Made by a program: the position numbers and the translations under genes
In this document: piece by piece, positions 5,078-56,565 of the stretch
Layout: every line of letters begins with the position of its first letter
How positions within the stretch are numbered: the first letter of the stretch is position 1
Origin: Holophagales bacterium
GTDB lineage: Bacteria > Acidobacteriota > Thermoanaerobaculia > UBA5066
DNA length: 64,000 nucleotides
NCBI GenBank assembly: GCA_016719485.1
Contig: JADJZB010000028.1
Coordinates: forward strand, 173,898-237,897
Direction of reading: 5' to 3'
Notes under the pieces: model-generated
Databases searched by the model: none
Told to the model about the DNA's origin: nothing
What the model saw: only the letters and a program-made list of their open reading frames with translations

Positions 5078-5083
5078 AATCGC

Positions 5084-5449: not shown

Positions 5450-5470
5450 AACCCCTTTTTTTCTTCTACG

Positions 5471-5488: not shown

Positions 5489-5502
5489 GAAGGGAGCACA
5501 CC

Positions 5503-6354: not shown

Positions 6355-6409
6355 GGACCGCCCTCCCCCGCCGCATCCCGAGTTCGGATTCGTTCAGGAG
6401 GCAGAGACC

Positions 6410-21200: not shown

Positions 21201-21356
21201 GCCGGGAAGGGTCAGGTCGGGGAAGAGGTCGCGGCGCAGCGAGGCGAACGCCACGACTCCCGCCAGGAGCCACACGAGGGCGAGGCCGAGGACGATTCCC
21301 CCGCGCGAGAGAACGGCCTCGAAGAGGCGCGGCAGAACCCTGCGCTCAGTGGTCAT
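18298..21356 (-). pseudogene. CusA/CzcA-family heavy-metal efflux RND transporter, frame broken near 20090
   Basis: N-terminal half in track ORF 19917..21356 (...AIAVGLLVDASVIMVENLLHRLRD, then nonsense). C-terminal half in ORF 18298..21273 (...DGASRRGVIARAAAEVGVPIVTAVAVILAVFVPLL...ALPSFYAWV). Total span 3059 nt, one nucleotide short of a multiple of three. Confidence 0.85.
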
Positions 21357-27783: not shown

Positions 27784-27805
27784 CTGTACCTCGAAACCGC
27801 GGCGG

Positions 27806-28924: not shown

Positions 28925-28925
28925 G

Positions 28926-29336
28926 TCACCCCTCCGGAACGTAGCGGATGAGGGGGTCGCGGACCTGGACGGCCGCGCCCACCTCCACGCAGACCTCCGC
29001 GATCGTCCCGGTGCGCGGGGCGTAGATGTACGTGTCCATCTTCATGGCGTCGAGGAGGACGAGGGGCGTCTTGGCCTCGACCGGCATTCCCTTCGTCACG
29101 AAAACCTTCTGGACGGTCCCGGCGAGCGGCGAGGCGATGGTGTTCGGGTCCATGCCGCCGGCGGGAACCGAAGCGGGAGCCGGGACCGAGGCGGGCCGCG
29201 CGGCCTCCGGAATCGGAAGGGCGGCGGCCCCCGGGTACGGGAGGCTCGCCGGCGAGCCGATCGCCTCGTCGTCCTGGAGGACCTGGACCTCGACGTCGTA
29301 GACCTTGCCACTGACGGTGATGCGGAGCTTCTTCAT
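28926..29336 (-). CDS. Biotin carboxyl carrier subunit of the decarboxylase
   Basis: MKKLRITVSGKVYDVEVQVL..., Pro/Ala linker, ...PLVLLDAMKMDTYIYAP (AMKM biotinylation motif). Confidence 0.85.
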   Translation of the reverse strand: MKKLRITVSGKVYDVEVQVLQDDEAIGSPASLPYPGAAALPIPEAARPASVPAPASVPAGGMDPNTIASPLAGTVQKVFVTKGMPVEAKTPLVLLDAMKMDTYIYAPRTGTIAEVCVEVGAAVQVRDPLIRYVPEG

Positions 29337-29344
29337 TTCTGTCT

Positions 29345-29653
29345 CTATCTCTTGGGTTCCATACGGTGGGAGCGCAGGATGTCGATCCGCCCGACACGCG
29401 ACCAGTTCTCCTGGCCGGCGGGACGGAGGACGTGAATGCGACGGACGACGACGGCCTTGCCGAGCGCGGCGTGGGCCGCCGCGGCGAGGACCACCACGAG
29501 CTCGGGCGTGATCCCGTCTTCGGGAACGGCGGCCGCAGACTTCGCCTGGCGGCGGGAAACGGCCTGGAGGGCGTAGAGGACGCCGACCAGGAGCGTCATG
29601 ACGCACATCACGACGCTCATGCAGATCAGGGCGACGACGGAGGGCGACATCAT
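29345..29653 (-). CDS. OadG-like small membrane subunit of the Na+-decarboxylase
   Basis: Track ORF 102 aa with an N-terminal TM helix (VVALICMSVVMCVMTLLVGVLYAL); positioned between the carboxyltransferase and the biotin carrier. Confidence 0.6.
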   Translation of the reverse strand: MMSPSVVALICMSVVMCVMTLLVGVLYALQAVSRRQAKSAAAVPEDGITPELVVVLAAAAHAALGKAVVVRRIHVLRPAGQENWSRVGRIDILRSHRMEPKR

Positions 29654-29660
29654 CGTCGCC

Positions 29661-39451: not shown

Positions 39452-40288
39452 ATGGGAGACTGGGGCGTGAGGTCGACGCTCTGGATCGTCCTGAAACCGT
39501 TGCTCCTCACGCTTGCGCTCGGCGCACCTCGAACCCAGGTCCACGCCGCTCCTCATCCCCGCGAGGTCCGCATCGCCGCCGCGGCAGACCTGAAGTTCGC
39601 TCTCGACGCCGTCCTCGCCGGCACGGCCGCATCGACGCGGGGGATCCGTCCCGTCGTCACGTACGGCTCTTCCGGGAGCTTCTACGCGCAGATCGAGAAC
39701 GGCGCCCCGTTCGACCTGTTCCTGTCCGCCGACGCCGAGTACCCGAGGCGCCTCGCGGCGAAAGGGCTCGGCGACGGGGAGCCGTTCCTCTACGCCGTCG
39801 GACGGATCGCGCTCTGGGTTCCCGCAGGTTCGAAGCTGGACGTCGCCGCGCTCGGCCTTCGCGCCCTCCTCGACCCTTCGGTCCGAAAGGTCGCCATCGC
39901 GAACCCCCGCCATGCTCCGTACGGCCGTGCCGCCGAGGCCGCCATGAAGGCGCTCGGGGTGTACGAGGACGTGAAAGGCAAGCTCGTCCTCGGAGAGAAC
40001 GTCGCGCAGGCCGCGCAGTTCGTCCAGAGCGGGGCGGCGGACGCGGGCATCGTCGCTCTCCCGCTCGCCCTCGCGCCGCACATGCGTTCGAGCGGGCGGC
40101 ACGTCGAGATCCCCGTCGCGAGCTATCCGCGCATGGACCAGGGAGGCCTCGTCCTGAAAGGGGCGCGTGAGCCCGCTGCCGCTCGCATCCTGCGCGACGC
40201 CCTCCTCGGCGCGCGGGGCCGCGCCATTCTCGAAGAGCACGGGTTCTTCCTCCCGGCGCCTCTCGCCGCACCCCTCTCCGCGCCTTGA
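39452..40288 (+). CDS. modA: Molybdate-type ABC substrate-binding protein (ModA family), no adjacent modBC
   Basis: Track ORF 278 aa: ...RIAAAADLKFALD...TYGSSGSFYAQIENGAPFDLFLSAD...KVAIANPRHAPYGRAA... Confidence 0.85.
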   Translation: MGDWGVRSTLWIVLKPLLLTLALGAPRTQVHAAPHPREVRIAAAADLKFALDAVLAGTAASTRGIRPVVTYGSSGSFYAQIENGAPFDLFLSADAEYPRRLAAKGLGDGEPFLYAVGRIALWVPAGSKLDVAALGLRALLDPSVRKVAIANPRHAPYGRAAEAAMKALGVYEDVKGKLVLGENVAQAAQFVQSGAADAGIVALPLALAPHMRSSGRHVEIPVASYPRMDQGGLVLKGAREPAAARILRDALLGARGRAILEEHGFFLPAPLAAPLSAP

Positions 40289-40323
40289 CGAGGGCTCCGA
40301 GGCGGAGCTACCGTCGTTCCCGT

Positions 40324-40752
40324 ATGGACAGCCCGCTGAATCGCACCCTCGGCGTCACGAAGGCGCTCGCGAATCCGGCCCGAATCCGGGTCCTCGCCGC
40401 ACTGGAAAAGGGCGAGTGCTGCGTCTGCCAGCTGACGGCCGTCCTCGACCTCGCCCCGTCGACCGTTTCGGCCCACCTCGCCGAGCTTCGGCGGGCAGGC
40501 TTCCTCCTCGACCGCAAGGACGGAAAGATCGTCTTCTACCGCCTCTCGGAGCGGCCCGATCTGAAGACCTGGCTGAAGGCGACCTTCACGGGGATCCAGA
40601 ACGACGAGAAGGTCGCGGCCGATCGCGCTTTCCTCGAGCGGGTCAAGGCGATCGACGTCGAGACGTTCTGCGGTGCCGGCCCTCGCTGGAAGCTCCTTCC
40701 CGCGTTCCGTCCCGCGCCGAAGCGGCCGCCGTCCGCGCGGAAACCGGGCTGA
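40324..40752 (+). CDS. arsR: ArsR/SmtB family transcriptional regulator (paralog 3)
   Basis: MDSPLNRTLGVTKALANPARIRVLAALEKGECCVCQLTAVLDLAPSTVSAHLAELRRAGFL... (CCVC motif). An alternative TTG start at 40285 overlaps the modA stop. Confidence 0.8.
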   Translation: MDSPLNRTLGVTKALANPARIRVLAALEKGECCVCQLTAVLDLAPSTVSAHLAELRRAGFLLDRKDGKIVFYRLSERPDLKTWLKATFTGIQNDEKVAADRAFLERVKAIDVETFCGAGPRWKLLPAFRPAPKRPPSARKPG

Positions 40753-40807: not shown

Positions 40808-41007
40808 ACGGGTGCCGACGGTGCTGGTTCCAGGCGCGCCGGCAGGGCCCGCACCCACGCAATCCATTCCCCTGGAAGCGATTGAGCCATTCGACCCGTT
40901 AGGCGACCCGGCTCCGCCCCACCCGGCTCCCGCGACGCCGTCGCGACTTCGTCGTATCGGGAAATGATGAAAACTCATCGTTGAGGCCGGAAACGGATCG
41001 CGGCATC

Positions 41008-41027
41008 ATTTCGACGCCTCGCGAAAT
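41008..41027. promoter_or_regulatory. Inverted repeat ATTTCG-N8-CGAAAT overlapping the arsR4 ATG (candidate ArsR operator, twin of 1031-1050)
   Basis: ATTTCG 41008-41013 and CGAAAT 41022-41027. Preceded by TTGAGG (40981-40986) at nearly the same distance as TTGACC in front of arsR1. Confidence 0.45.
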
Positions 41028-41493
41028 GCCGACCTCACCGCTCTCCCGCCTCCTCGACACATCGAAGGTCCTCGCGAACCGCGCGCGGCTGCGGATCCTC
41101 GCCACGCTCGAAGGAAACGAGCTCTGCGTCGGCCAGGTCGCGGCGATCTTCGACATCGCCCGCTCGACGGCGTCCGAGCACCTCTCCGCCCTCCGGCGCG
41201 TCGGGCTCGTCGCCGAACGTCGGGACGGCAAGTTCGTCTACTACTCCCTCACCGTCGACGAGCACGCGCGGAAGTTTTCCGACGTCGTCCTGGCCGAGCT
41301 CTCCACCGACGCCGCCGTCCGGAAAGACCGCGACCTGACAGCTCGAATCCTCGCGCTGCCGCACGACCTCGTCTGCGAGCAGGGCCGCGCGGCCCTCCTC
41401 GCCCCGATCTCCCCGGCCGCCCCGGCGGCCGATCCGGATTCTCCGTCCTGCTCGGCATCACATCCGAACACCGACCCACAGGAGGCTCCATGA
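41026..41493 (+). CDS. ArsR/SmtB family transcriptional regulator (paralog 4, CVC site degenerate)
   Basis: MPTSPLSRLLDTSKVLANRARLRILATLEGNELCVGQVAAIFDIARSTASEHLSALRRVGLV...; internal ATG of track ORF 40981..41493. Confidence 0.75.
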   Translation: MPTSPLSRLLDTSKVLANRARLRILATLEGNELCVGQVAAIFDIARSTASEHLSALRRVGLVAERRDGKFVYYSLTVDEHARKFSDVVLAELSTDAAVRKDRDLTARILALPHDLVCEQGRAALLAPISPAAPAADPDSPSCSASHPNTDPQEAP

Positions 41494-42395
41494 CACAGGC
41501 CCGGCCCTCCCCGGAAGGCCCGCCCCGCGTCCCCGGGTGGATGCATCAGGGCGGACTCCTCCTCGCGGCGGGCGCCCTCCTCGCCCTTCTCCCGGCGCCG
41601 CCCGCGGTGGCCGCCGCCGAGAGCCCCTGTGCACCCTGCCACGCCGAGCAGGTGGACGCGGCCTCGAAGGGGCCGCACGCCGGCATCGCCACGCGCGAGG
41701 CGCGGTACTGCGAGAGCTGTCACGGCGACGCGGCGAAGCATCTCGAGAGCGGCTCTGCCGCCGACATCGTCGGCAAGGCGGCTCTTGCGAAGGCGGACGC
41801 GAAGGCCCGTTCCAGGGCGTGCCTCACCTGCCACCGGAGCGGCTTCCCGGGGTGGGAGGGGACGCCCCACTCCCGCAGTGCCGACGTCTCCTGCTGGAGC
41901 TGCCACGGGGATTCGTGGCACGACGCCAAGGGCAAGGCGGCGAAGAAGCGGGGCGAGAGCGCCTGCGCCTCCTGCCACGTCGAGCAGGTCAGCGAGTTCC
42001 GGCGCGTCTACCGCCACCCCGTCCTCGAGGGACGGATGGGCTGCGCCTCCTGCCACGACGTCCACGGCAAGACCGCCGGCGGGAAGAAGGGCCCCGAGAG
42101 CAACTGCCTCGAGTGCCACCCCGAGGCCGCTGGCCCGTGGGTCTTCCCGCACCGGGCGATGGAAGACGGCTGCTCCTCGTGCCACGTCCCGCACGGCTCG
42201 GTGAATCGCAGTCTCCTGAAGACCTCGGGCAACGGCGTCTGCCTCACCTGCCACGTCCAGACCAACTTCCCGGCCGCCGGCAAGATCCCGCACAACCGCT
42301 ACCTGCAGGGGGGCGGCAAGTGCATCGACTGCCACAGCGAGGTCCACGGCTCCAACGTGGACGAGCTGATGGCGCCGCAGTACCGCAAGCGCTGA
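41490..42395 (+). CDS. Periplasmic decahaem c-type cytochrome, MtrA/DmsE-like
   Basis: Track ORF 301 aa with a signal peptide and ten CxxCH motifs: CAPCH, CESCH, CLTCH, CWSCH, CASCH, CASCH, CLECH, CSSCH, CLTCH, CIDCH. The ATG overlaps the arsR4 stop (ATGA); an alternative ATG lies at 41541. Confidence 0.85.
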   Translation: MTQARPSPEGPPRVPGWMHQGGLLLAAGALLALLPAPPAVAAAESPCAPCHAEQVDAASKGPHAGIATREARYCESCHGDAAKHLESGSAADIVGKAALAKADAKARSRACLTCHRSGFPGWEGTPHSRSADVSCWSCHGDSWHDAKGKAAKKRGESACASCHVEQVSEFRRVYRHPVLEGRMGCASCHDVHGKTAGGKKGPESNCLECHPEAAGPWVFPHRAMEDGCSSCHVPHGSVNRSLLKTSGNGVCLTCHVQTNFPAAGKIPHNRYLQGGGKCIDCHSEVHGSNVDELMAPQYRKR

Positions 42396-42405
42396 GGAGG
42401 AGACG

Positions 42406-44335
42406 ATGAAGAAGAGCTTCCTCCTCCCGCTCGCCCTCACGACAGCCTTCGCCGTCGCGCTCCCTGTCACGGCCGAAGACGCCCCGAAGACCAGCACCAC
42501 CGACGTCACCCTCGCCGGCGTCGCCGGCATCGAGGACGGCGACGACGGCCGGCGGGACGACCACGAGGGCTACCGCAACGGCGTCCTCGTCGGCCTCGAG
42601 CACAGGTCCAGGGGGCTCGAGATCGGCCTGCGCTTCGAGCCGACCACCGCCGGCTGGCTCGACCTGACCTACCGGCCGGAGAGCCCCTTCCGCCTCGAGC
42701 TGACGCTCGACCGGACCCGGCGCTACTCCGACACCTCCATCCGGCCGGAGACCACGCCGCTCGGGACGCCCGTCTCCACCCTCTACCCGAACACGAACAC
42801 CCTCCATCCGGGCGTCGGCCCCGACGACCCGGTTGCCACGCGGACCCGCTTCAAGGTCCGCGCGGCCTGGCTCCCCTCGGCGGGCGTCGTCGACTTCACC
42901 GTCCGCGGCGTCGACCTCGGCGGCGAGCGGGTCCCCGAGGCTCAGGGCTTCGCCTTCGGCGACTCGGGCGCGCCGGCCTTCTTCAGCCCGGCCCTTGCGG
43001 AACTCGACACGCAGCTCCTCGAAGGAGCCCTCGGCGCCAGGCTGCGCCTCCTCTGCATCGACTGGAACGCCCGCGTCGCCCTCGGGAAGCGCACGAGCGA
43101 CTCCCTCACCACGACGCCCGTCTTCGGCACGGCGAGCCTCCTCGAGCTCTACCGCGGCGGCGAAGGGCACGACGCCGACTACGTCCAGGCCCACCTGACC
43201 GCCGCCAACCAGTACGAGCACGTCCAGCTCGCCGGCGGCGTCCACTACGACAAGGTCGAGTCGACCCCGACCTTCACCGGCGGCCACGAGCGCCGCCGGG
43301 CAGGTCGTGCGCGACGCCCTGACGAACGGCGTTTCCGACGTCACCCGCCAGGGAGCCGCCGGCGCCGTCTCCGTCCAGCCCTTCGGCGGCTTCGACGTGA
43401 GGGTGACCGGCCGCATCGGCAAGGAGGAGACCGAAGCCTCCGGCACCGAGACCGTCAGGAGCCGCACCTACGCCCTCACCCAGAACCAGGACCTCGACAC
43501 CTGGGCCGTCCGCGGCGAGCTCGGCTACCGCACCGGCGGCTTCCGCGCCTCGGTCCTGGGCGGGCGCGAGGAGACCACCAACGACCTCCTCTTCGTCCGC
43601 GGGACCGGCCTGCAGCAGCAGGAAAACGAGCGGACGAAGGACTCCCTGCGCGGCGAGCTGCGCTACAAGGCGGGCGCCTTCCGCATCGCCCTGCAGGGCG
43701 GACGCACCTGGGACGAGACCACCATCGAGCTGGCCGACCTCCTCAACGGCTATGCCACGGGCCCGAAGGAATCGACCTTCGACTCCGTCTCCGGCTCCCT
43801 CAGCGGCAAGCTCGGCAAGGCCCCCTTCACCGTGATGGCCTCCTGGGGCCGGGGCGTCGCCGACCTCGAGGCGCCGTTCTACGAGCCCTTCTACGACCCC
43901 ACCTGGGTCCTCGGCACGGCCCGCGCCGAGACCGAAGCCACCAGCGTCGTCCTGCACGCCGGCACCCCCGGCGGCTCGGCCTTCGAGCTCTGGGGCGAGA
44001 TCGGCTTCCGGAGCCAGAGCTGGGAGTTCCCCGACGCGGTCACCTTCCCCGGCTTCGTCAACACCGACGAGGAGGTCAACGGCGTCACCGGGGCGCTCGG
44101 CCTCGACTGGACACCGGGAGACGGATGGCGTGCCGGCCTCTCGGGCTGGCTCGACGCTCCTTCCGAGTCCACCGACCACCAGGCGTGGCGCGTGGAAGGA
44201 ATTGTCGAGAAGAGCCTCTCGAAGACCTTCGACGCCCTCCTGAGGATCCAGTACCGCGACTTCGACGAAGCCCTCTACAACCTCGACGACTACACCCTGA
44301 CGGCCTTCACCTTCGGCGTGAAGGGCCACTTCTGA
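42406..44335 (+). pseudogene. MtrB/PioB-like outer-membrane beta-barrel porin, frame broken near 43290
   Basis: N-terminal part in track ORF 42406..44748 (signal peptide MKKSFLLPLALTTAFAVALPVTA, alternating beta-strand-like sequence up to ...HYDKVESTPTFTGGH). C-terminal part in ORF 43307..44335 (...VVRDALTNGVSDVTRQGAAG...YTLTAFTFGVKGHF, terminal Phe). Combined length is about 643 aa. Confidence 0.7.
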
Positions 44336-44349
44336 GAGAGGAAGGACCG

Positions 44350-44748
44350 ATGAGCAGGAAAGCCACCTTCGTGGCCCTCGCCCTCCTCCCGCTCCTCGCC
44401 CTCGCCTCCGCGCCCTTCACGGGCGCCGACGCGGCGGCGGTGAACGCGACGGCGATCCACGACCCCCAGAGCCCCTCCTACAAATCCGACTGCCTGACCT
44501 GCCACGCCGCGATCCTGAAGGAGAGCTCCCAGGACCCGCGGGTGCAGACGTTCCACAACGCCATGCTCCCCTTCACCCCGGGCTACAACCCGCGCAAGGG
44601 TCCAGACAACAAGAACTGCGTCTTCTGCCACCGCGCCGCCATCGACTTTACCCAGGAGTCCGGCGCCGAGCTGCGCCGCACGGTCTCCGTCGAGGCCTGC
44701 GTTTCCTGCCACTCCCGCTCGGGCCCCGGCCCGGTCTACTACAAGTAG
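44350..44748 (+). CDS. Small secreted trihaem c-type cytochrome
   Basis: MSRKATFVALALLPLLALASAPF... with CLTCH, CVFCH and CVSCH; tail of track ORF 42406..44748. Confidence 0.8.
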   Translation: MSRKATFVALALLPLLALASAPFTGADAAAVNATAIHDPQSPSYKSDCLTCHAAILKESSQDPRVQTFHNAMLPFTPGYNPRKGPDNKNCVFCHRAAIDFTQESGAELRRTVSVEACVSCHSRSGPGPVYYK

Positions 44749-44757
44749 GAGCAGAGG

Positions 44758-45300
44758 ATGAGCACGTACGGATTCCTCGTCGACCTCGGGCTCTGCATCT
44801 CCTGCTCGGCCTGCGAGGCCGCCTGCAAGACCTGGAACAACGTCCCCACCGGCCGCAACGTCCGCTGGCGCCGGGTCATCGACCAGGTCCTCGGCGTCTG
44901 GCCGAAGGTGACGACCTACGGCGTCTCGATGGCCTGCAACCACTGCGCCGACGCCCCCTGCGTCAAGGCGTGCCCCTCCGGCGCCCTGACGGTCCGCACC
45001 AAGGACGGCATCGTCCTGCTGGACAAGACCAAGTGCATCGGCTGCCGCTACTGCGAGTCGGTCTGCCCGTACGGCGCCCCGCAGTACGACGCCACCGAGA
45101 AGAAGATGTCCAAGTGCACGATGTGCGTCGACCGGATCGATGCGGGCAAGGAGCCGGCCTGCGTCGACACCTGCCCGACCGGAGCGCTGCAGTTCGGAAA
45201 GCTCGTCGACATCGACCACGAGGGCGTCAAGCAGATCCCGAACTTCGCCGAACCCTCCTACACCAACCCCTCGATCCGCTTCGTGCCGAAGGAGGGATGA
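44758..45300 (+). CDS. 4Fe-4S ferredoxin-type electron-transfer subunit of a molybdopterin oxidoreductase (DmsB/PsrB/ArrB-like)
   Basis: Track ORF 180 aa: CISCSACEAAC, CNHCADAPCVKACP, CIGCRYCESVCP, CTMCVDR...CVDTCP. Confidence 0.9.
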   Translation: MSTYGFLVDLGLCISCSACEAACKTWNNVPTGRNVRWRRVIDQVLGVWPKVTTYGVSMACNHCADAPCVKACPSGALTVRTKDGIVLLDKTKCIGCRYCESVCPYGAPQYDATEKKMSKCTMCVDRIDAGKEPACVDTCPTGALQFGKLVDIDHEGVKQIPNFAEPSYTNPSIRFVPKEG

Positions 45301-45301
45301 G

Positions 45302-47551
45302 ATGAACACTCTCGACGCGAACCGGCGCGAGTTCCTCAAGACATCCGGCACCGCTCTCGCCGGCGCCGCCGTCCTTCCCGGTTTTCTCGACGGCATCGTC
45401 CGCAAGGCCTCCGGGCCCGTCCCCCTCGCCGACACGGCGACGCAGATCATCAGCGACTGTGCCTGGTGCGGCTCGGCCTGCGGCATGAAGGCGACGGTGT
45501 CGGGCGGCGTCCTGACGTTCGTCGAGGGGCTCCCCGAGGACATCCAGGGCGGCGGGAAGATGTGCGCCAAGGGGAAGGCCGCCACCGGCTACCTCTACGA
45601 CCCCGACCGTCTCAAGTACCCGATGAAGCGGACGAACCCGGTCAAGGGTGTCGGCGTCGACGCCGGCTGGGTCCGCATCACCTGGGACGAGGCGCTCGAC
45701 CTCGCCACCGCGAAGCTGAAGGAGACGATCGAGAAGAACGGGCGCGACAGCGTCATGATCCTCGGCCTGGCGAGCCCCGACGTCTGGGCCCGATTCCAGA
45801 ACTGCATCGGCACGTCGAACCGGTTCGACCACTGGGACGAGTGCTTCCTCGCGAACCGCGTCGTCTCCGCAAACGTCATCGGCGGCTTCGTCTGGGGCCA
45901 CGACTTCGCGAACGCGAAGTACATCGTCACGTTCGGATGGGACGTCGTCGGGAAGGCGAAAGTCGTCTGGGCCCGCGCCGTCACCGACGCCAAGAAGAAG
46001 GGGGCGAAGATCGTCTCCTTCAACCCGTACAAGGCGGCCGGGACCTCCGTCGTCGCCGACGAGGCGATCTCGATCCGCCCCGGGTCGGACCTCGCCGTCG
46101 TCAACGCGATGATCCACGTGATCCTCGCCGAGAACCTCTACGACAAGGCCTTCGTCGAGGGGCTGACGAACTTCCCGCAGTACGAGACCGAGATCCGCGC
46201 CCACTTCGCGCCTTACACGCCGGAATGGGCCGAGGCGCTCTCCGACGTCCCCGCCGAAACGATCACCCGGATCGCCCGCGAGTTCGCGACGAACGGCCCT
46301 GCGATCGCCCCGATCCACAAGAAGACCCCGTCGGCCAACTACGCCAACGGCAGCGAGACGACGTTCGCCATCACGATCCTGAACGTCCTCGCCGGGACGA
46401 TCGACCGGCCGGGCGGACGCTTCTTCCCGCGGACGCACACGATCCCCGGGATCGACGCCATCGTCCCGCCGCCGGCCTACCCGGCCAAGAGCGGCGTCGA
46501 CATCGTCGGGCGCCACCGCCACCCGTTCCTCAAGGCCGTTGGAAGCGGCATGTTCTCGTGCCTGGCGGACGGCCTGCGAAAGAACCCCGGCAAGATCCAG
46601 ATGGGGATCATCACCCGCTACTCGACGATGGCCTTCCCGAATCCGCCCGAGGTCGAGGCAGAGCTGAAGAAGATCCCCTTCACGGTCGTCTGCGACATCT
46701 TCCCCAACGAGATCATCGAGCTGGCCGACGTCGTCCTCCCCTCGGCCCTCTACCTCGAGGTCTCCGACCTCGTCGCCCGCGACCACCACGCCCCCTACAA
46801 GATGACCGTCGTGAGGCAGCCCGTCGTCCCGCCGCAGTTCGAGACGAAGCCGCTCGGCTCCATCCTCCTGGCGTGGGGCCTCAAGGCCTTCCCCGAATAC
46901 TGGAAGAACCCCGACGGGACGCCGATCAACATGGGATACGTCCTCGACGAGAAGACGAAGCGTGCCGGCCTCGGAGCGAACTTCGCCGAGATGAAGGCGA
47001 AGGGATTCGTGAAGGAGGTCGCGCCCTTCGTCCCGCGGACGTCGTTCCCGACGGCGAGCGGGAAGATCAACATCTACGTCAAGGCCTTCGCGGATGCCGG
47101 CTTCGAGCCGCTCCCGACGTGGAAGCAGAAGCGCGACGTCCCGAGCAGCCAGTACCCGTTCTATCTCCTCACGATCATTCCCCCGATGCACATCCGCAAT
47201 ACCACGGAGAACAACCGGATCACGAACGAGATCAAGGGGACGAACGAGGTCTTCATCAACGTCCAGACCGCCCGCGGCCTCGGCATCTCCGAGGGCGACA
47301 CGATCAAGGTCCGCTCCCGCGTCGGCGAGATCCAGGTCCCGGCACGCCTCACCGAGGCGATCCGGCCCGACTGCGTCCTCGTCCCGCACGGCTTCGGCCA
47401 CCAGTCGCGCCTCATGACGGCGGCCTACGGCAAGGGCGCCAAGGACGCCATCCTCGTTCCCGGACAGTCGATGGACGACATCCTCGCCCGCAAGGACGTC
47501 GGCGGCGCGGCCTGCATCATGGACGCCGTCGTCTCCATCGCGAAGATCTGA
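45302..47551 (+). CDS. Tat-exported molybdopterin (bis-MGD) oxidoreductase catalytic subunit, DMSO-reductase superfamily, subfamily unassigned
   Basis: MNTLDANRREFLKTSGTALAGAAV (twin-Arg signal), CAWCGSACG...GGGKMCAKG (CX2CX3C..C cluster), FDHWDECFLANR (probable Cys Mo ligand), C-terminal ...FINVQTARGLGISEGDTIKVRSRVGEI... barrel. About 749 aa inside track ORF 45140..47551. Confidence 0.9.
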   Translation: MNTLDANRREFLKTSGTALAGAAVLPGFLDGIVRKASGPVPLADTATQIISDCAWCGSACGMKATVSGGVLTFVEGLPEDIQGGGKMCAKGKAATGYLYDPDRLKYPMKRTNPVKGVGVDAGWVRITWDEALDLATAKLKETIEKNGRDSVMILGLASPDVWARFQNCIGTSNRFDHWDECFLANRVVSANVIGGFVWGHDFANAKYIVTFGWDVVGKAKVVWARAVTDAKKKGAKIVSFNPYKAAGTSVVADEAISIRPGSDLAVVNAMIHVILAENLYDKAFVEGLTNFPQYETEIRAHFAPYTPEWAEALSDVPAETITRIAREFATNGPAIAPIHKKTPSANYANGSETTFAITILNVLAGTIDRPGGRFFPRTHTIPGIDAIVPPPAYPAKSGVDIVGRHRHPFLKAVGSGMFSCLADGLRKNPGKIQMGIITRYSTMAFPNPPEVEAELKKIPFTVVCDIFPNEIIELADVVLPSALYLEVSDLVARDHHAPYKMTVVRQPVVPPQFETKPLGSILLAWGLKAFPEYWKNPDGTPINMGYVLDEKTKRAGLGANFAEMKAKGFVKEVAPFVPRTSFPTASGKINIYVKAFADAGFEPLPTWKQKRDVPSSQYPFYLLTIIPPMHIRNTTENNRITNEIKGTNEVFINVQTARGLGISEGDTIKVRSRVGEIQVPARLTEAIRPDCVLVPHGFGHQSRLMTAAYGKGAKDAILVPGQSMDDILARKDVGGAACIMDAVVSIAKI

Positions 47552-47553
47552 TC

Positions 47554-48180
47554 GTGACGAGCGGCGCTCCCGGTCCCCGCGGTCTCCTCCTGGCCCTCGC
47601 CGTCGCGCAGCCCGCGACGGGCGGGCCGCGGACCGCCGCGTTCGTCTCCGGCTTCCTCGCTCGCCTTCTCCTCGACCCGCCGTCCGAGACCCTTCACGCC
47701 CTTCTCGGACTGCGGGCCGATCCTCCGCTCGTGCACGACGGCCTCGACGCCCGCGTCGAGGCCGTCGCCCGCCTCTACCGCGAGGCCGATCCGGTCGAGC
47801 TGGCGAAGGAATGGACGCGTCTCTTCGTCGGACCGCGGGCCGCTCCCTGCCGCCCCTGGCACGACACCTGGGAGCACGACGGGCCGCCGCGCCTCAGGGG
47901 TCCGAAACACGCCTCGATGACCGCCTTCTACCTCCGCGCCGGCCTCGAGCCGACGCGCGCCGGGTCCGACCCGGCAGACCACGCCGGGCTCGTCCTCGCC
48001 CTCTTCTCGGCCCTGGCGGCCCGCGTCGCCGAGGGAGACGACGTGCGCCCGCTCCTCGAGGAGCTCTGGCAGGCGCACGTGGGGTCCTGGCTGCCCCGCT
48101 TCGCCACGACGCTCGTGGCCGAGGCGCGGGTCCCCGCGCTGAAGGCCGCCGGGGAGCTGCTCCTCGAGGCCGTCTCCTGA
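47554..48180 (+). CDS. TorD/DmsD-family redox-enzyme maturation chaperone
   Basis: GTG 2 nt after the catalytic-subunit stop: ...ELAKEWTRLFVGP...PADHAGLVLALFSALA...WLPRFATTL...; tail of track ORF 45466..48180. Confidence 0.7.
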   Translation: MTSGAPGPRGLLLALAVAQPATGGPRTAAFVSGFLARLLLDPPSETLHALLGLRADPPLVHDGLDARVEAVARLYREADPVELAKEWTRLFVGPRAAPCRPWHDTWEHDGPPRLRGPKHASMTAFYLRAGLEPTRAGSDPADHAGLVLALFSALAARVAEGDDVRPLLEELWQAHVGSWLPRFATTLVAEARVPALKAAGELLLEAVS

Positions 48181-48186
48181 CCGCCG

Positions 48187-48207
48187 CCCCGGTCCCTCCT
48201 ACCGGGG
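48187..48207 (+). terminator. Hairpin CCCCGGT-N7-ACCGGGG directly after the operon (terminator-like, no U-tract)
   Basis: Perfect 7-bp GC-rich stem starting 7 nt after the chaperone stop. Confidence 0.3.
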
Positions 48208-48813
48208 CTGCGCGCGCGCGGCCTCGATCGCCTTCTTCAGCTCGGGGTTGATCCCCACGCCCCGGCCTTCAGCCTCTACGCCCGGCCTGTCGTACCGCCG
48301 CGCCAGTAGGGAGGGCCGAGGTTGTGCCCGCCGTAGCCGGGCTGGCCTTCAGCGCCGCTCGTACTGTCACGGCTTGGCGGGCCGCTGAGCCAGAGGACGT
48401 TCCTGAAAGAAGGAGTACCGGCTGGTCCGGGGGGCGTTAGGATGGGTCGATCTCGCCTCCGCCTCCGGGACTCTGCTGGCCGCGCCGGCCGCCCCGGTCG
48501 GAAAGGCGCGCCCGCGCGCCCGGCCGCCCCCTGCCGCGTCGCGTGCGTCGTCCCGGCGGCCTCCCGGGGCGCCGAGCACCCCGGGTCCGCTCGAAGTCCT
48601 TCCTGTCGAAATGCCTGGCCTGCGGGACGGGTCCGGACCGGCGGAGAGCTGGCGTCGAGGGTCTGGTGCTGTGGCGCGCGGCGGCAGGCCAGGCGACCGC
48701 AGCGACCGGCGGCCTTTCCGCATCCCCTCCGGGGCGGGAGACCAGCCCCCAGCCCCGTTTCGGGACGGATCAGCGAGTGCCACCCACCCGCCGGGCCGGG
48801 CGGGGCCCTGGAG

Positions 48814-52014: not shown

Positions 52015-53301
52015 TCAGCCGACGCGCGTCAGCCGGACCCGCGACACGTGCCGCGCCGTGCTCTCGACGACCTCGACCTTCAGGCCCGACTCCTCGTCGA
52101 CGAGCGATTCCCCCGGTCTCGGGATCCGCCCGAGGCGATGAAGGACGAGCCCCGCGATCGTGGCGTAGGCCGGGTCCTCCGGCAGCTCGAGGTCGAGCGC
52201 GCGGTTCACGTCCCTCACTCCCGCCCCTCCCTCGACCACCCAGACCGCCTCACCTTCGGAGCGGTACGGCACGGTTGCCGTCTCCTTCTCGTGCAGGATC
52301 TCCCCGACGACCTCTTCGACGAGGTCCTCGAACGTGACGAGCCCCGTGAAGGCGCCCAGCTCGTCGACGACGAATCCCATCGAAACGTGGAGCTTCTGAA
52401 GGTCCCGAAGGACGGCGACCGCCTCCGCCGACTCCGGGAAGAACGGCGCCTCGTGCACGAGACCCTCGAGCGGCCCGGGGGAGCCCTCCAGGAGCCGGAG
52501 GAGGACGTCCCGGCCGAGGACGTATCCCTTTGCGGTGTCGAGGCTCCCCTCGTGAACGGGGAACCTCTCGAAGGGGCTGCGGGAGAAGAGGTCCTGGATC
52601 TCTCGCGGGCCGGCCGTCATCGGGATCGCGACCACGGCCGTTCGCGGGGTCATCACGGTGCCGACTTTCAGGCCCGGCAGGTCGAGCGCCCGGGAGGCGA
52701 TCTCGCTCGCCCGCGGGTCGAGCGCACCCGTCAGGGCGGTCTCTTCGACGAGCGTCTGCAGCTCCTCGCGCGAGAGCCGGGCTTCGGTGAAGGACGTCCT
52801 GTCGCCGAAGAGGCGGAGGATCAGGTTCGAGCACGCCGTCAGGAAGCGGATGACGGGGCGCCCGAGCCTCGCGAGGAGAGAGAGCGGCCGCGCGATCGCG
52901 AGGGCGTAGCCTTCCGCGAAGCGCATGGCGAGGGACTTCGGGACGAGCTCTCCGGCGACGAGGGACAGGAACGACACGACCACGACCACGAGGCCGAGCG
53001 CGACGTCGTCGGCGACCTTGACGGGGACCCCGAGCGCGCTGAACCCCGCCGCGAGGGGCGCGGCGAGCGTCGCGCCCCCGAACGCCGCCGCCGCCGCACC
53101 GACGACCGTGATTCCGATCTGAACCGTCGCCAGGAAGCTCTCCGGGTCGGCGCGCAGCGCGGAGAGGGCGGCAGCCCCCGCCCGTTCCTCCTCGACCAGC
53201 TCCGCGATCCGGGTCCTTCTCACGGTCAGGACGGCGATCTCCGCGCCGGCGAAGAGCCCGTTCGCCGCGACGAGCGCCAGGACGACGAGGATCTCGAACA
53301 T
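52015..53301 (-). CDS. CNNM/HlyC/CorC-family transporter (DUF21-CBS-CorC_HlyC)
   Basis: Track ORF 428 aa: MFEILVVLALVAANGLFAGAEIAV..., a CBS pair, then ...EVVGEI. Confidence 0.85.
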   Translation of the reverse strand: MFEILVVLALVAANGLFAGAEIAVLTVRRTRIAELVEEERAGAAALSALRADPESFLATVQIGITVVGAAAAAFGGATLAAPLAAGFSALGVPVKVADDVALGLVVVVVSFLSLVAGELVPKSLAMRFAEGYALAIARPLSLLARLGRPVIRFLTACSNLILRLFGDRTSFTEARLSREELQTLVEETALTGALDPRASEIASRALDLPGLKVGTVMTPRTAVVAIPMTAGPREIQDLFSRSPFERFPVHEGSLDTAKGYVLGRDVLLRLLEGSPGPLEGLVHEAPFFPESAEAVAVLRDLQKLHVSMGFVVDELGAFTGLVTFEDLVEEVVGEILHEKETATVPYRSEGEAVWVVEGGAGVRDVNRALDLELPEDPAYATIAGLVLHRLGRIPRPGESLVDEESGLKVEVVESTARHVSRVRLTRVG

Positions 53302-53408
53302 GCGGCGATTCTACGGACGACGCGCTCCGCGGGTACGTCGGGGCGCGAAACCGCGCGGTGGCCCAGGTCCTCGTCCGGGGCTCTCTTCCGGTTATCGTCC
53401 CGGCACCG

Positions 53409-54545
53409 ATGTCCGCGACGTCCCTCTCGGAGCTGGCGCTCCTCTTCCTTCGCCTCGGGACCACCGCCTTCGGCGGACCGGCGGCGCACGTCGCGATGTT
53501 GCGCGACGAGGTCGTGAGGCGCCGGGCGTGGATGACGGACGCCGCGTTCCTCGACCTCCTCGGTGCCACGAACCTGATCCCGGGCCCGAACTCGACGGAG
53601 ATGGCGATCCACGTCGGCTGGGCGCGCCGCCGGTGGGCCGGCCTCGCCGTCGCCGGCCTCGCCTTCATCCTCCCCGCGACGCTGATCACGGGCGTCCTCG
53701 CGTGGGCGTACGTCCGCACCAGTGACCTGCCCCAGGCGCGCTGGCTCCTCTACGGCGTCAAGCCCGTCATCCTCGCGATCGTCTTCCAGGCCATCTGGGG
53801 CCTCGCGCCGCTCGCCGCACGGTCGTGGCCGCTCCGCGTCCTCGGCGTCGCTGCCGTCGCGGCGTCGGCCCTCGGCGTCCACGAGCTGGCGGTGCTGCTG
53901 GGGAGCGGTCTGCTCGTCGTGGCCGCGCGCGCAGCGTCCGACCGCCGCCCGCCCGCGCCCGTCGCGGGCTTCGCTCCCCTACTTCCTCTCGCCGCCGGCG
54001 TGGCCGGACTCGCGTCGGCGGGCGGGGCCACCCTCAACGGGATCTTCTGGCTCTTCTGCCGGACGGGCGCCGTTCTCTTCGGGAGCGGCTACGTCCTCCT
54101 CGCGTTCCTCCGTGCCGACCTCGTCGAGAGGCTCGGCTGGCTCACCGAAGCGCAGCTCCTCGACGCGATCGCCGCCGGGCAGGTGACGCCCGGCCCCGTC
54201 TTCTCGACGGCGACCTTCGTCGGCTGGCTCCTCGCAGGCCCTTCCGGCGCTCTCGTCGCCACCGCCGGGATCTTCCTCCCCGCCTTCGTCTTCGTGGCCC
54301 TCTCGGCGCCGCTCGTACCGCGCCTGCGCACCTCACCCACGGCCGCGGCGTTCCTCGACGGCGTCAACGTCGCTTCGCTCGCCCTCATGGCCGTCGTCAC
54401 GGTGCTTCTCGGGCGGGCGGCGGTCGTCGACGTCCCTTCGGCGCTGCTGGCCGCAGGCGCCGCCATCCTTCTCCTGCGTTTCCGGCCGAACTCGACCTGG
54501 CTCGTCCTCGGGGGAGCCGTCGCAGGGGCGATAATCGCGCCATGA
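53409..54545 (+). CDS. chrA: Chromate ion transporter (CHR family, two-domain)
   Basis: MSATSLSELALLFLRLGTTAFGGPAAHVAMLRDEVV...LIPGPNSTEM... and a second half ...GQVTPGPVFSTATF...; internal start of track ORF 53358..54545. Confidence 0.85.
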   Translation: MSATSLSELALLFLRLGTTAFGGPAAHVAMLRDEVVRRRAWMTDAAFLDLLGATNLIPGPNSTEMAIHVGWARRRWAGLAVAGLAFILPATLITGVLAWAYVRTSDLPQARWLLYGVKPVILAIVFQAIWGLAPLAARSWPLRVLGVAAVAASALGVHELAVLLGSGLLVVAARAASDRRPPAPVAGFAPLLPLAAGVAGLASAGGATLNGIFWLFCRTGAVLFGSGYVLLAFLRADLVERLGWLTEAQLLDAIAAGQVTPGPVFSTATFVGWLLAGPSGALVATAGIFLPAFVFVALSAPLVPRLRTSPTAAAFLDGVNVASLALMAVVTVLLGRAAVVDVPSALLAAGAAILLLRFRPNSTWLVLGGAVAGAIIAP

Positions 54546-55320: not shown

Positions 55321-56448
55321 TTACTCGACGGGTCGGGCGGCGCCGGGGCCGCCCGACCTCGTCTCCTCGCCGCGGTTCTTCAGAAGCGACGCGACGACGC
55401 CGGCCGCGAGGATGAGGAGCACGACGGCGAGCAGGTAGAGGTTGAAGTTCTCGCCGAGCTGCTCCTTGAGCCACTTGTGGGTCATCATCTTGACGCCCAC
55501 CACCATGAGCACGACGGCCAGGGAGACCTTCAGGTAGCGGAACTTGTCGATCATCCCGGCCAGGGCGAAGTAGAGGCTGCGAAGGCCCAGGATGGCGAAG
55601 ACGTTGCTCGTGAAGACGAGGAACGGGTCGGCCGTGATGGCGAAGATCGCCGGGATCGAGTCGACGGCGAAGATCAGGTCGGTGAACTCCACCATGACCA
55701 GGGCCAGGAAGAGCGGTGTCGCGAGGACGGTCCCGCGCTTCGCGGCTTCGACGACCCTGTCGGAAGCGACGGCCGCGCCCGGGGTCTCCGCCTCCCGGGA
55801 GGCGTCGGTCCCCGCCCTCACGAAGAAGTGCTCGCCGTGGAACCGCTCGGTGATCGGGAAGAGCCTCCGGGTCGCGCGGACGACGAGGTTCCTGTTCGGG
55901 TCGGTCTCCCCCTCCTTGAGGAGGAGCATCTTGACCCCGGTCAGGATGAGGAACCCGCCGAAGACGTAGATGATCCACGCGAACTCCTGGATCATCTTCG
56001 CGCCGACGGCGATCATCGCCCCGCGCAGCAGCAGCGCGCCCAGGATGCCCCAGAACAGCACCCGGTGCTGGTAGAGCGCGGGCACGGCGAAGAACGTGAA
56101 GATCATGCTGATGACGAAGATGTTGTCCACGGCGAGGGACTTCTCGACGAGGTATCCCGTCACGTACTTCACGAAAGCCGAGGCCCCGTCGTTGTAGACC
56201 GTCCCGAGCCCTTCCACGGCCACGGGACGCGCGGTCATCAGGTCGGGCGTGAGACCGAGGCCGAGCCAGTGGTTCTCGTAGCCGAAGTAGATGAAGCCGC
56301 TGAACGCGAGGCCGATGGTGATCCAGAAGACCGACCAGCCGAGGGCCTCCTTCACGGACACGACGTGAGCCTTGCGGTTGAAGACGCCCAGGTCGAGCGC
56401 GAGGAGCGCCAGGATCAGCAGAACGAAACCGGAATACATCCAGAGCAC
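55321..56448 (-). CDS. TerC/Alx-family integral membrane protein
   Basis: Track ORF 375 aa: ...YLVEKSLAVDNIFV...EFTDLIFAVDSIPAIFAIT... Confidence 0.9.
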   Translation of the reverse strand: MLWMYSGFVLLILALLALDLGVFNRKAHVVSVKEALGWSVFWITIGLAFSGFIYFGYENHWLGLGLTPDLMTARPVAVEGLGTVYNDGASAFVKYVTGYLVEKSLAVDNIFVISMIFTFFAVPALYQHRVLFWGILGALLLRGAMIAVGAKMIQEFAWIIYVFGGFLILTGVKMLLLKEGETDPNRNLVVRATRRLFPITERFHGEHFFVRAGTDASREAETPGAAVASDRVVEAAKRGTVLATPLFLALVMVEFTDLIFAVDSIPAIFAITADPFLVFTSNVFAILGLRSLYFALAGMIDKFRYLKVSLAVVLMVVGVKMMTHKWLKEQLGENFNLYLLAVVLLILAAGVVASLLKNRGEETRSGGPGAARPVE

Positions 56449-56464
56449 GTCGAGACTCCTTTCG

Positions 56465-56565
56465 AGGATCCGTCAGCCAGGGATGTCGCCCAGCGTCGGG
56501 TACCGGCAAGCGGCCCGCCCGCTGGCCGCTGCAACCGATAATTCTCCCCTGACCGACGGGGCTGT
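56465..56565 (-). promoter_or_regulatory. Structured leader of the TerC gene; candidate yybP-ykoY (Mn2+) riboswitch
   Basis: On the minus strand CCGUCGGUCAGGG (56559-56547) pairs with CCCUGGCUGACGG (56482-56470): 13 bp including two G-U pairs. The helix encloses GGGGAGAAU (compare the conserved GGGGAGUAG), an internal hairpin AGCGGCC...GGCCGCU, and GGCGACAUCC. Confidence 0.4.

Follow-up and report, generated by a model that had tools for sequence, protein, structure and literature searches.

Seven genes lie on the same strand at positions 41026–48180 of the window, the 64-kb stretch of DNA that we analysed, with intergenic gaps of −4, 10, 14, 9, 1 and 2 nt and clear Shine–Dalgarno sequences before five of the seven (Table 1). 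In order, they encode an ArsR-family regulator, a decahaem cytochrome, a large barrel protein, a trihaem cytochrome, an Fe–S subunit (B), a molybdopterin catalytic subunit (A) and a chaperone (D). This gene content and order had been described in a first-pass annotation of the window, and its account of spacing, ribosome-binding sites and acidobacterial host was likewise borne out. The stop codon of the operon-head arsR gene overlaps the decahaem start (ATGA), with AGGAGG 6 nt upstream of the decahaem ATG. The first-pass annotation had also reported the lack of genes for a membrane anchor or quinol dehydrogenase, and this holds both for the cluster and for the entire 64 kb, in which we found neither an NrfD/NapC-type gene nor a further CxxCH-rich open reading frame.

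Table 1 Operon genes and upstream features. Coordinates are positions within the 64-kb window; all seven operon genes are on the + strand.
Feature	Position	Strand	Evidence or remark
modA, molybdate-binding protein	39452..40288	+	TIGR01256, 157.9 bits versus cut-off 62.5; context only
ArsR/SmtB regulator no. 1	40285..40752	+	HTH_5, 4.3e-15; Cys-rich ECCVCQ retained
9-nt perfect inverted repeat, GAAATGATG / CATCATTTC, 34 nt between arms	40961..41012	.	Candidate operator
ArsR/SmtB regulator no. 2, operon head	41026..41493	+	Pfam HTH_5, 1.4e-12; NF033788, 78.3 bits versus cut-off 55
MtrA/DmsE-type periplasmic decahaem cytochrome, 301 aa	41490..42395	+	Ten CxxCH, Sec signal
Predicted outer-membrane β-barrel, remote MtrB-family homologue	42406..44335	+	Structure model and hhalign; 2-nt deletion near 43290
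Trihaem c-type cytochrome, 132 aa	44350..44748	+	Three CxxCH, Sec signal, without lipobox
Four-cluster [4Fe–4S] subunit B, 180 aa	44758..45300	+	Fer4_11, 5.6e-30; DmsB model, 172 bits
bis-MGD catalytic subunit A, 749 aa	45302..47551	+	Tat motif RREFLK; three bis-MGD-enzyme Pfam domains
TorD/DmsD-family maturation chaperone D	47554..48180	+	PF02613, 3.8e-19; GTG start 2 nt past A stop

The decahaem cytochrome proved to be of the MtrA/DmsE type, as proposed from its length and haem count. Its residues 46–289 align with residues 66–324 of MtrA in the Mtr complex (6r2q_A; E = 1.6e-33), a full-chain match spanning all ten haems, and its translation begins with a hydrophobic N terminus. It scores 180.8 bits on TIGR03508, the DmsE family, narrowly below the curated cut-off of 192.2, and shows no preference among the Mtr and Dms subtypes. 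The trihaem protein belongs to a family of 27 members found only in clusters of the present kind. Its plain Sec signal without a lipobox suits a shuttle in the periplasm at least as well as an adaptor at the surface.

The decahaem gene is followed immediately by the gene for a putative porin, both in the window and in each of the 20 related loci; the window protein has a signal peptide and the C terminus GVKGHF. The earlier description of this protein as MtrB/PioB-like fared unevenly. The gene is frame-broken in the window, which is 2 nt short relative to an intact protein of 98% identity, P0001 (TFTGVATSAAGQ), and the ‘643 aa’ product exists only after frame repair. Pfam (MtrB_PioB) and NCBIfam searches gave no match, the HMMER profile of the porin family does not match MtrB (6r2q_B), and distant family members have no MtrB_PioB match either. 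The resemblance is carried by structure modelling and by profile–profile comparison. An AF2 model of P0001 (pLDDT 71) contains 26–28 strand elements; MtrB is a single barrel of about 26 strands with room for a decahaem. The best TM-score of this model is to MtrB (6r2q_B), although it reaches only 0.55, compared with about 0.4 for 22-strand TonB receptors. When a widened porin alignment was compared by hhalign with 31 MtrB, MtrE and DmsF porins of the Shewanella group, the match had a probability of 96.2% (local) or 98.8% (global), with E = 2e-9, and ran end to end over 567 co-linear columns. It scored 85, versus 19–40 for reversed, block-shuffled and unrelated-barrel controls. The widened alignment was needed for this result, as a narrow query alignment showed no profile–profile homology to MtrB/MtrE/DmsF, and no preference for DmsF was seen. 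Judged by predicted fold and profile–profile comparison, in which alone the likeness is visible, the porin is MtrB-like. The repaired protein has a single Cys and lacks an N-terminal CXXC, a motif noted for the MtrB of metal reducers in a paper on Limisphaera (PMC13608581).

The 2-nt deletion is probably an assembly error. The closest public relatives lie on contigs whose names (tig...) suggest long-read assemblies, and one relative, JADJVF010000037.1, likewise has a split porin. A CusA/ZneA-type RND pump in the window is also frame-split, at about 20,000–20,100, and codon-position GC is coding-like on either side of the porin break. These observations argue against a real deletion that would make the porin gene a recent pseudogene and this copy inactive, a possibility that we consider unlikely without being negligible; it is favoured by the break itself, at about 43290, where no alternative start restores one protein. 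If the frameshift is real, the system may no longer function in this genome, an issue separate from its mechanism in intact relatives.

Subunit A is, by sequence, Psr/Phs-like. It falls not in a characterised clade known for a cytochrome/porin neighbourhood, an outcome that the first-pass annotation had envisaged, but in an uncharacterised acidobacterial clade with the gene order B-A-D. Its residues 7–727 align with the PsrA structure 2vpw (E = 8e-85). The cysteines of the N-terminal Fe–S motif (C53, C56, C60 and C88) are invariant, as is Cys181, the aligned counterpart of the PsrA Mo ligand Cys173; His145 and Arg332 of PsrA correspond to Leu and Thr in the alignment. None of the curated family models against which subunit A was scored reached its cut-off: the PhsA model gave 333 bits (equivalog cut-off, 694), the lowest value among the relatives tested, and the DmsA/YnfE model TIGR02166 a lower 197 bits (cut-off, 777.7). 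An ArrA or ArxA identity was rejected: subunit A scores 152.5 bits where the ArrA model requires 1600, and (R/K)GRY is absent, RGRY aligning with ILGLAS. The Arr/Arx-type candidates entertained in the first-pass annotation are therefore without sequence support. Subunit B has 16 Cys arranged as four cluster motifs and, from its translation, no signal peptide. Neither the conduit loci nor the B-A-D loci have a TM-rich open reading frame next to them that could encode an NrfD/PsrC-type subunit, and no NapC-type gene adjoins the cluster in any locus; relatives at ≤41% identity do have a TM-rich frame.

The synteny search that had been proposed for the seven genes recovered a six-gene core, lacking ArsR, in 16 loci of Thermoanaerobaculia/“Holophagales”, window included. 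Because this core recurs in 15 other loci, across which porin identity falls from 98% to about 23%, the arrangement is not due to chance. Among 1.84 billion representative proteins, just 34 belong to the porin family, and 20 of the 21 porin-family loci that we examined (window included) place the porin beside both a decahaem cytochrome and a molybdoenzyme; in the sole exception, L092, a distant porin is paired with the decahaem alone. The first-pass annotation was right about the gene set, and the modular nature of the unit was invisible from the window. In four further MAGs (L180–L183), the decahaem–porin–trihaem cassette precedes a Ttr-like A-B-D enzyme, whose subunit A (973–1003 aa) has TtrA as its best model (362–382 bits versus a cut-off of 1750). 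These loci also encode B and a TorD-like protein. A TtrSR-like sensing system lies nearby, and the variant has a two-component sensor accompanied by a periplasmic binding protein. A sister clade has B-A-D alone, without the conduit, in about 50 loci (Bryobacteraceae, Solibacter and related MAGs), which marks the conduit as something added to this enzyme and linked with it. The conserved set of conduit and molybdoenzyme genes occurs in a small group of uncultured Acidobacteria. What the sequences establish is the identity of the proteins, the missing anchor, strict co-occurrence of the parts and the pairing of one cassette with two enzyme clades. We found no published description of the gene arrangement in the literature.

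That the operon is headed by an ArsR gene, as previously noted, is true here, but this gene lies outside the conserved unit: only the closest relatives have ArsR and modA with the cluster (modA lies upstream in L001, L005, L006 and L008), and both are absent in L002, L003, L013, L015, L089–L091 and L093. As(III)-sensing ArsR proteins carry a Cys triad, CVC plus a further Cys, in the metal-binding helix. The operon-head ArsR has lost the As(III)-type CVC, reading ELCVGQ, and has two distal Cys; the best PDB relatives of the regulators are generic ArsR/SmtB or HlyU proteins. An imperfect 15-nt hairpin (I1) lies 3′ of the stop codon of ArsR no. 1, and the inverted repeat just upstream of the second arsR gene also occurs in L005 and L008/L009, relatives so close that its conservation carries no weight. 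Because two ArsR/SmtB repressors precede it, the operon is probably switched in this lineage by a metalloid of thiophilic character or by a signal from reactive sulfur. The wider context was also as annotated earlier, with modA and an ArsR gene immediately upstream, moaA at 17.3 kb (17277–18245) and an ars island of thioredoxin-like, ArsP, ArsM-like, Acr3 and ArsC genes at 1576–7911. In this lineage, the cluster is surrounded by an ars, ChrA, TerC and RND-pump neighbourhood.

To our knowledge, the Shewanella Dms system is the only studied case of a porin–cytochrome conduit serving a molybdoenzyme, and it remains the nearest studied precedent, as the first-pass annotation had it. The dmsEFABGH operon is treated as a system for extracellular reduction in two papers (PMC11302344, PMC9732548). 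Like DmsEFABGH (DMSO/iodate), the present operon combines a decahaem cytochrome and a porin with a Tat-exported Mo subunit that has no anchor, an Fe–S subunit with four clusters and one or more chaperones, and lacks a quinol dehydrogenase gene. Seven dms-type loci that we recovered (L160, L162, L163, L166, L168, L171 and L173) contain the decahaem, porin, Mo and Fe–S genes in that order. Unlike in Dms, subunit A here is Psr/Phs-like rather than of the DmsA clade, the order is B-A instead of A-B, the operon includes a trihaem gene as well, only profile–profile comparison links the porin to MtrB and the phylum is Acidobacteriota. Moreover, the surface location of Dms is proven, whereas that of the present enzyme is a prediction.

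Other systems share parts of the layout. As in MtrCAB, MtoAB and PioAB, the decahaem gene is followed directly by that of a large barrel with a C-terminal Phe, and, as in Mto and Pio (layouts in Table 1 of PMC10654088), these genes are accompanied by one for a small soluble redox protein and an MtrC-type lipoprotein cytochrome is absent. Unlike in Mtr, Mto and Pio, the partner is a molybdoenzyme and not a mineral, photosystem or respiratory chain, and the barrel has neither a Pfam MtrB_PioB match nor the N-terminal CXXC of metal reducers. PsrABC/PhsABC provides the best sequence relative of subunit A (2vpw) and shares the Mo-ligand Cys, Tat export of A and a four-cluster B, but has a PsrC/NrfD quinol-oxidising anchor, which is missing here, where the order is B-A-D. 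Shewanella ArrAB is similarly a two-subunit A–B enzyme without its own anchor, and in strain ANA-3 it is under an ArsR-family repressor; by contrast, the present enzyme has ILGLAS in place of RGRY, and Arr itself has no outer-membrane conduit. For TtrABC/SrdBCA, it is the sister cassette of L180–L183, and not the window version, that has a TtrA-like A, again without a TtrC anchor.

Analogy with Shewanella DmsEFABGH, together with energetic arguments, leads to our best reading, which we hold tentatively and at somewhat less than even confidence: the system would be a reductase of the Dms kind, directed to the cell surface and acting on sulfur or metalloid species. A and B would be folded in the cytoplasm with the TorD-like chaperone and then exported by Tat, forming an anchorless enzyme in which A would carry Mo-bisMGD and one [4Fe–4S] cluster and B four [4Fe–4S] clusters. 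The cassette of trihaem, decahaem and barrel would replace the usual membrane quinol-oxidising subunit, with a divergent MtrB-type barrel of about 26 strands sheathing the decahaem across the outer membrane; the predicted result is a single chain of Mo, five Fe–S clusters and thirteen haems across that membrane. Electrons from the quinone pool would enter the periplasm via an inner-membrane dehydrogenase encoded elsewhere, cross through the decahaem–porin and pass, with the trihaem as adaptor, to B and then A, the putative terminal reductase at or beyond the outer membrane. Its likely substrate would be a sulfur or metalloid compound that does not dissolve, is bound to minerals or is converted to a troublesome product, candidates being elemental sulfur or polysulfide, tetrathionate, and Se, Te or As oxyanions. 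Only such an outward-reductase layout would seem to allow energy conservation. The reductase direction was counted from the Dms precedent and from the best-scoring named NCBIfam models for both enzymes (PhsA, TtrA, the DmsA/YnfE subfamily and ArrA), all of which are reductases. Besides the plain Sec signal of the trihaem, further points count against this reading. The cluster lacks type II secretion genes or another export factor; the missing MtrC-type cytochrome is also a hallmark of the electron-uptake systems MtoAB and PioAB; and the periplasmic binding-protein sensor of the Ttr-like variant suggests that the substrate of that enzyme probably reaches the periplasm.

It is possible, if doubtful, that the enzyme is instead periplasmic and trades electrons with the outside via the decahaem–porin, bypassing the quinone pool, as either a reductase or an oxidase. 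As a reductase, it could draw on Fe(II), minerals or partner cells for the electrons with which it reduces an oxyanion; as an oxidase, it could take electrons from sulfide or As(III) and pass them to Fe(III)/Mn(IV) minerals. In either case, the cassette would be a portable ‘outer-membrane anchor’ that replaces the inner-membrane subunit of different molybdoenzyme clades. In the inward direction, which we regard as unlikely, the decahaem–porin would import external electrons in the manner of MtoAB/PioAB from Fe(II), reduced humics, minerals or partner cells, and these would pass through the trihaem to periplasmic B and A and on to a soluble acceptor of fairly high potential (tetrathionate, selenite or arsenate), bypassing the quinone pool. 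The lack of an MtrC-type surface cytochrome, the resemblance of the trihaem to a soluble periplasmic protein and the periplasmic sensing system of the Ttr-like variant all agree with such uptake, and decahaem, porin and small periplasmic carrier together match the Mto/Pio layout as tabulated in PMC10654088. However, uptake would not conserve energy and would use up protons of the periplasm, the reduction of polysulfide or thiosulfate in this way would be thermodynamically impossible, and the decahaem has no Mtr/Dms subtype preference that could indicate direction.

Less likely again would be a periplasmic oxidase, serving mainly in detoxification, in which A and B oxidise sulfide or polysulfide, thiosulfate or As(III) and electrons leave through the trihaem and the decahaem–porin to Fe(III)/Mn(IV) minerals or humics. 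Desulfovibrio FdhABC3, a soluble Mo/W dehydrogenase with a small multihaem partner, counts in its favour, as do the ArsR regulators and the ars, ChrA, TerC and RND-pump genes of this lineage. Cultured Thermoanaerobaculum reduces Fe and Mn oxides by a proposed route of cytochrome and barrel clusters (10.1101/2020.10.01.322446), which is also consistent with an oxidase. Yet the enzyme is not Arx/Arr-like, an oxidase of this type would not allow energy conservation, and most loci lack ArsR. In addition, the characterised members of the Psr/Phs and Ttr clades that we know of are all reductases. That the decahaem–porin is a general metal-oxide conduit and the molybdoenzyme a mere operon neighbour fed by the general cytochrome pool, as sister-clade B-A-D enzymes that function without a conduit and the stand-alone pair of L092 might suggest, is improbable given that tiny porin and trihaem families are tightly spaced with the molybdoenzyme in 20 of 21 loci, with operon-like start/stop overlap and a linkage that spans two enzyme clades and two gene orders.

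Porin–cytochrome conduits are known mainly as routes to or from Fe and Mn minerals. The gene set described here represents a second, independent and modular solution for joining such a conduit to a molybdoenzyme, in a different phylum from Shewanella and built on a Psr/Phs-like or Ttr-like enzyme, with a porin so divergent that it escapes standard MtrB screens. If the enzyme is at the cell surface, the system would be a candidate mechanism for respiration of insoluble sulfur or mineral-bound Se, As or Sb; the mechanism of elemental sulfur respiration is still called unclear (PMC13510729). If it is periplasmic, the system would link extracellular redox partners directly to oxyanion chemistry, bypassing the quinone pool. 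Some ‘MtrA’ counts in Acidobacteriota MAGs may accordingly not mean iron reduction. The porin and trihaem form a marker set for detecting such systems, and a testable role can now be assigned to a widespread, unannotated clade of acidobacterial enzymes.

The operon comprises seven co-directional genes, as the first-pass annotation had proposed: all seven were found on the forward strand, joined by an ATGA overlap and then by gaps of 10, 14, 9, 1 and 2 nt, with good Shine–Dalgarno sequences at five of them. The claimed lack of a membrane anchor also held, in that the cluster has no TM-rich gene of anchor type next to it, and scanning all 64 kb turned up no further multihaem ORF. Between 39.3 and 48.9 kb, a scan for promoters and terminators gave nothing over shuffled expectation. 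Rfam revealed no riboswitch at the operon or at modA; its sole match, a Mo-cofactor riboswitch (RF01055, 53.1 bits versus a gathering score of 36), sits immediately 5' of moaA, whose placement at 17.3 kb was correct. The decahaem frame stays open for 173 codons 5' of its ATG, overlapping arsR in a different frame; the same stretch is open in relatives L005-L008 (473-475 codons stop to stop) and is probably a high-GC effect. Beyond the chaperone gene, a 633-nt spacer (76% GC) in which a clear coding signal is absent leads to a convergent EamA transporter gene; this spacing varies among close relatives and is 35 nt in one of them, L001.

Features of the window and of related loci in other genomes (loci numbered on their own contigs)
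Feature	Position	Strand	Remarks
ArsR/SmtB regulator, operon head	41026-41493	+	ORF listing and family scans
Decahaem cytochrome	41490-42395	+	301 aa, exactly ten CxxCH
Porin (large barrel protein)	42406-44335	+	signal peptide, C-terminal Phe
Trihaem cytochrome	44350-44748	+	132 aa
B, ferredoxin-type subunit	44758-45300	+	180 aa, 16 Cys in four cluster motifs
A, bis-MGD subunit	45302-47551	+	749 aa, Tat motif RREFLK
D, TorD/DmsD-family chaperone	GTG start 47554	+	family scan
Open frame 5' of decahaem ATG	40971-41489	+	
Spacer, chaperone to EamA gene	48181-48813		
Thioredoxin-like protein, ars island	1576-1887	+	
ArsP permease, ars island	1943-3616	+	
ArsM-like methyltransferase, ars island	5233-6354	+	
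Acr3, ars island	6410-7483	+	
ArsC, ars island	within 7054-7911	+	low-molecular-weight-phosphatase type
RF01055	17131-17285	+	
moaA	17277-18245		
CusA/ZneA-type heavy-metal RND pump, split	18301-21356	-	N-terminal half 19917-21356, C-terminal half 18301-20100
CusB-like fusion protein	21346-22500		beside split RND pump
Sodium-pumping decarboxylase cluster	26401-31205	-	CitMHS-type carboxylate transporter, oxaloacetate decarboxylase beta subunit, carboxyltransferase
CNNM/CorC-type transporter	52015-53310	-	downstream of operon
Chromate transporter ChrA	53112-54545	+	downstream of operon
TerC-family protein	55321-56472	-	downstream of operon
Ttr-like locus	L180 3977-11474		
Ttr-like locus	L182 918-13532		
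Ttr-like loci	L181, L183		
ExtI-type porin	L182 12438-13532		
Decahaem-porin pair	L092 3021-10106		
Second Mo enzyme	L002 1-3122		

The haem count of the decahaem cytochrome was confirmed by motif counting, and its assignment to the MtrA/DmsE type was upheld: it aligned with the MtrA chain in the Mtr complex structure across all ten haems (E 1.6e-33) and scored narrowly under the DmsE-family cut-off (180.8 versus 192.2 bits). The trihaem protein belongs to a family of 27 members and has a plain Sec signal without a lipobox; its conserved His38, His70 and Met73 could be distal haem ligands. Pfam gave two hints, both below cut-off (MtrC/MtrF domain II/IV, 27.4 bits; cytochrome c7, 23.3 bits), the AF2 model was of low quality (pLDDT 62.5), and Foldseek returned no match. 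Likeness of the decahaem to MtrA/MtrD/DmsE, or of the porin to MtrB/MtrE/DmsF, showed preference for none and was dropped as a guide to electron direction.

Sequence searches of Pfam, NCBIfam and the PDB returned zero matches for the window porin. Its family comprises 24 clusters in a 5.8-billion-protein set; a HMMER profile of the family gave 34 matches among 1.84 billion representatives, none a bridge to MtrB/PioB, and the MtrB_PioB domain was found in 0 of 10 distant members scanned. The MtrB-type identity first proposed thus failed ordinary profile tests, but the structural model leaned towards it and profile–profile comparison upheld it. The AlphaFold model (pLDDT 71) of P0001, the intact porin of a close relative, is a single giant barrel with 26-28 strand elements; its top TM-score in the PDB was to MtrB (0.55), all others being 22-strand TonB-dependent receptors at about 0.4. 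As an hhalign reference, we collected 75 MtrB, MtrE and DmsF porins whose genes follow an mtrA homologue in Shewanella, Ferrimonas, Paraferrimonas or Marinobacter. A narrow 20-sequence porin alignment gave no signal, and only the query widened to 26 sequences worked, matching end to end over 567 columns (E 2e-9; probability 96.2% local, 98.8% global) at a score of 85, compared with 19-40 for reversed, block-shuffled, TonB-receptor and other barrel controls. Together, the model and the hhalign match over its controls indicate that the window porin is a remote MtrB-family member, invisible to ordinary screens.

The signal peptide and terminal Phe reported for this protein of about 643 aa are present, but its gene is not intact: the frame shifts near 43290, and compared with P0001 (98% identical) it is 2 nt short within a length-variable stretch. 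Three observations make assembly error considerably likelier than decay: a second long gene, that of the RND pump, changes frame at about 20.0-20.1 kb; contigs of the nearest public relatives bear names (tig...) of the kind usual for long-read assemblies; and one of these relatives has a split porin too.

Catalytic subunit A found its closest match in Thermus PsrA (E 8e-85); among family models it came nearest to PhsA (333 bits against a cut-off of 694), and its ArrA score was far below the PhsA one. Its Cys181 aligned with the PsrA Mo ligand Cys173, and ILGLAS stands where ArrA has the arsenate-binding RGRY segment. A role as arsenate reductase or as arsenite oxidase was rejected on the HMM scores and the absent RGRY. 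A neighbour-joining tree, which carried no support values, placed the conduit-linked A sequences in one clade, sister to the clade from loci with B-A-D alone, both nested among Psr/Phs-like sequences.

With the Mo-subunit alignment as query, we scanned 185,579 species at one genome each and grouped the best 80 loci by neighbourhood. Relatives at <=41% identity to A had A before B, the classical arrangement, and in many cases an NrfD-like protein (8-9 predicted membrane helices) came next. In the band around 50-54%, some 50 loci had B-A-D by itself, with neither anchor nor cytochrome; most of these belonged to Bryobacteraceae, Solibacter and related MAGs. At >=55%, the decahaem, porin and trihaem genes precede B-A-D in Thermoanaerobaculia and "Holophagales" MAGs. 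The resulting six-gene core recurs in 16 loci including the window (best 80 loci plus contig look-ups), and ArsR falls outside it: ArsR and modA next to the core are confined to the closest relatives (L001, L005-L010), other core loci being flanked by unrelated genes (aconitase, CrcB, complex I). A porin matching the family profile at only 1e-20 still lay within the same six-gene cluster. The most distant porin (701 aa, locus L092) occurs in a bare decahaem-porin pair, possibly a conventional conduit directed at minerals; ahead of the pair comes a 1302-aa protein that has five CxxCH motifs and lacks any Pfam match. In L002, a genome without ArsR at the cluster, a second Mo enzyme with a fused Fe-S/cytochrome-b subunit, followed by two Sulf_transp (YeeE/YedE-type) genes, lies a few kb 5' of the Psr-like version, a hint that this organism metabolises sulfur compounds. 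These pattern-limited genome scans found no cultured carrier of the cluster; its porin and trihaem genes do occur in uncultured Thermoanaerobaculum MAGs.

A search with the trihaem alignment yielded 12 species genomes, MAGs throughout. In four of the 12 (L180-L183), this decahaem-porin-trihaem cassette is followed by another enzyme, with the gene order A-B-D and a TorD-like D. Its A subunit (973-1003 aa, Tat motif TRRGFLK) scored best with the TtrA model (362-382 bits, cut-off 1750), and again no anchor was found. A PhnD-like periplasmic binding protein, a histidine kinase and a NarL-type response regulator are encoded nearby (upstream in L182), and L182 also has an ExtI-type porin close by, a porin type that its NCBI model name assigns to a selenite/tellurite reduction operon. 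Because the same cassette precedes both Psr-like and Ttr-like enzymes, with the anchor absent, it is a portable unit that takes the place of the membrane subunit in two enzyme clades.

In the window lineage, the operon sits among ars, ChrA, TerC and RND-pump genes. The ars island was borne out, with five ars-type genes over 1576-7911, a span in which no regulator was identified. The operon-head ArsR has lost its CVC motif and the upstream ArsR retains ECCVCQ, as read from translation; tracing sensing specificity through PDB relatives was dropped, the matches being uninformative.

The part identities, missing anchor, tight linkage and modularity are properties of the loci themselves; functionally, the Mo site, five Fe-S clusters and the haems, three in one cytochrome and ten in the other, would make up a chain across the outer membrane. 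We tentatively predict a surface-directed reductase of the Dms type, fed as in Shewanella through an inner-membrane quinol dehydrogenase encoded elsewhere. A Sec-only trihaem protein, the absence of an MtrC-type cap and the periplasmic sensor of the Ttr-like version would instead suit a periplasmic enzyme, either a reductase supplied by electron uptake, which we consider unlikely, or an oxidase discharging electrons outward, which appears less likely still. The Dms-type surface reductase is favoured because the best-scoring named models on both enzymes represent reductases, because the characterised members known from the two clades are reductases too, and because its layout is the only one that would allow energy conservation, via the inner-membrane quinol dehydrogenase. 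Sulfur species as substrate would be consistent with the enzyme clades; metalloids would fit, circumstantially, the ArsR pair, the metal-gene neighbourhood and the ExtI-like porin of L182.

The nearest studied system is Shewanella dmsEFABGH, already named as precedent. The operon logic is common to both, whereas the window operon differs in its catalytic clade, B-A order, added trihaem protein, very divergent porin and phylum. Full-text literature searches found no published description of the window cluster. The nearest, a preprint on marine Acidobacteriota (10.1101/2020.10.01.322446), presents cytochrome and barrel clusters common to Thermoanaerobaculum as candidate metal-oxide reductases and ties no molybdoenzyme to them. 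In a hot-spring study, "two MtrA" of Thermoanaerobaculum aquaticum were tallied as iron-reduction genes; one of the two may belong to a decahaem-porin-molybdoenzyme module.
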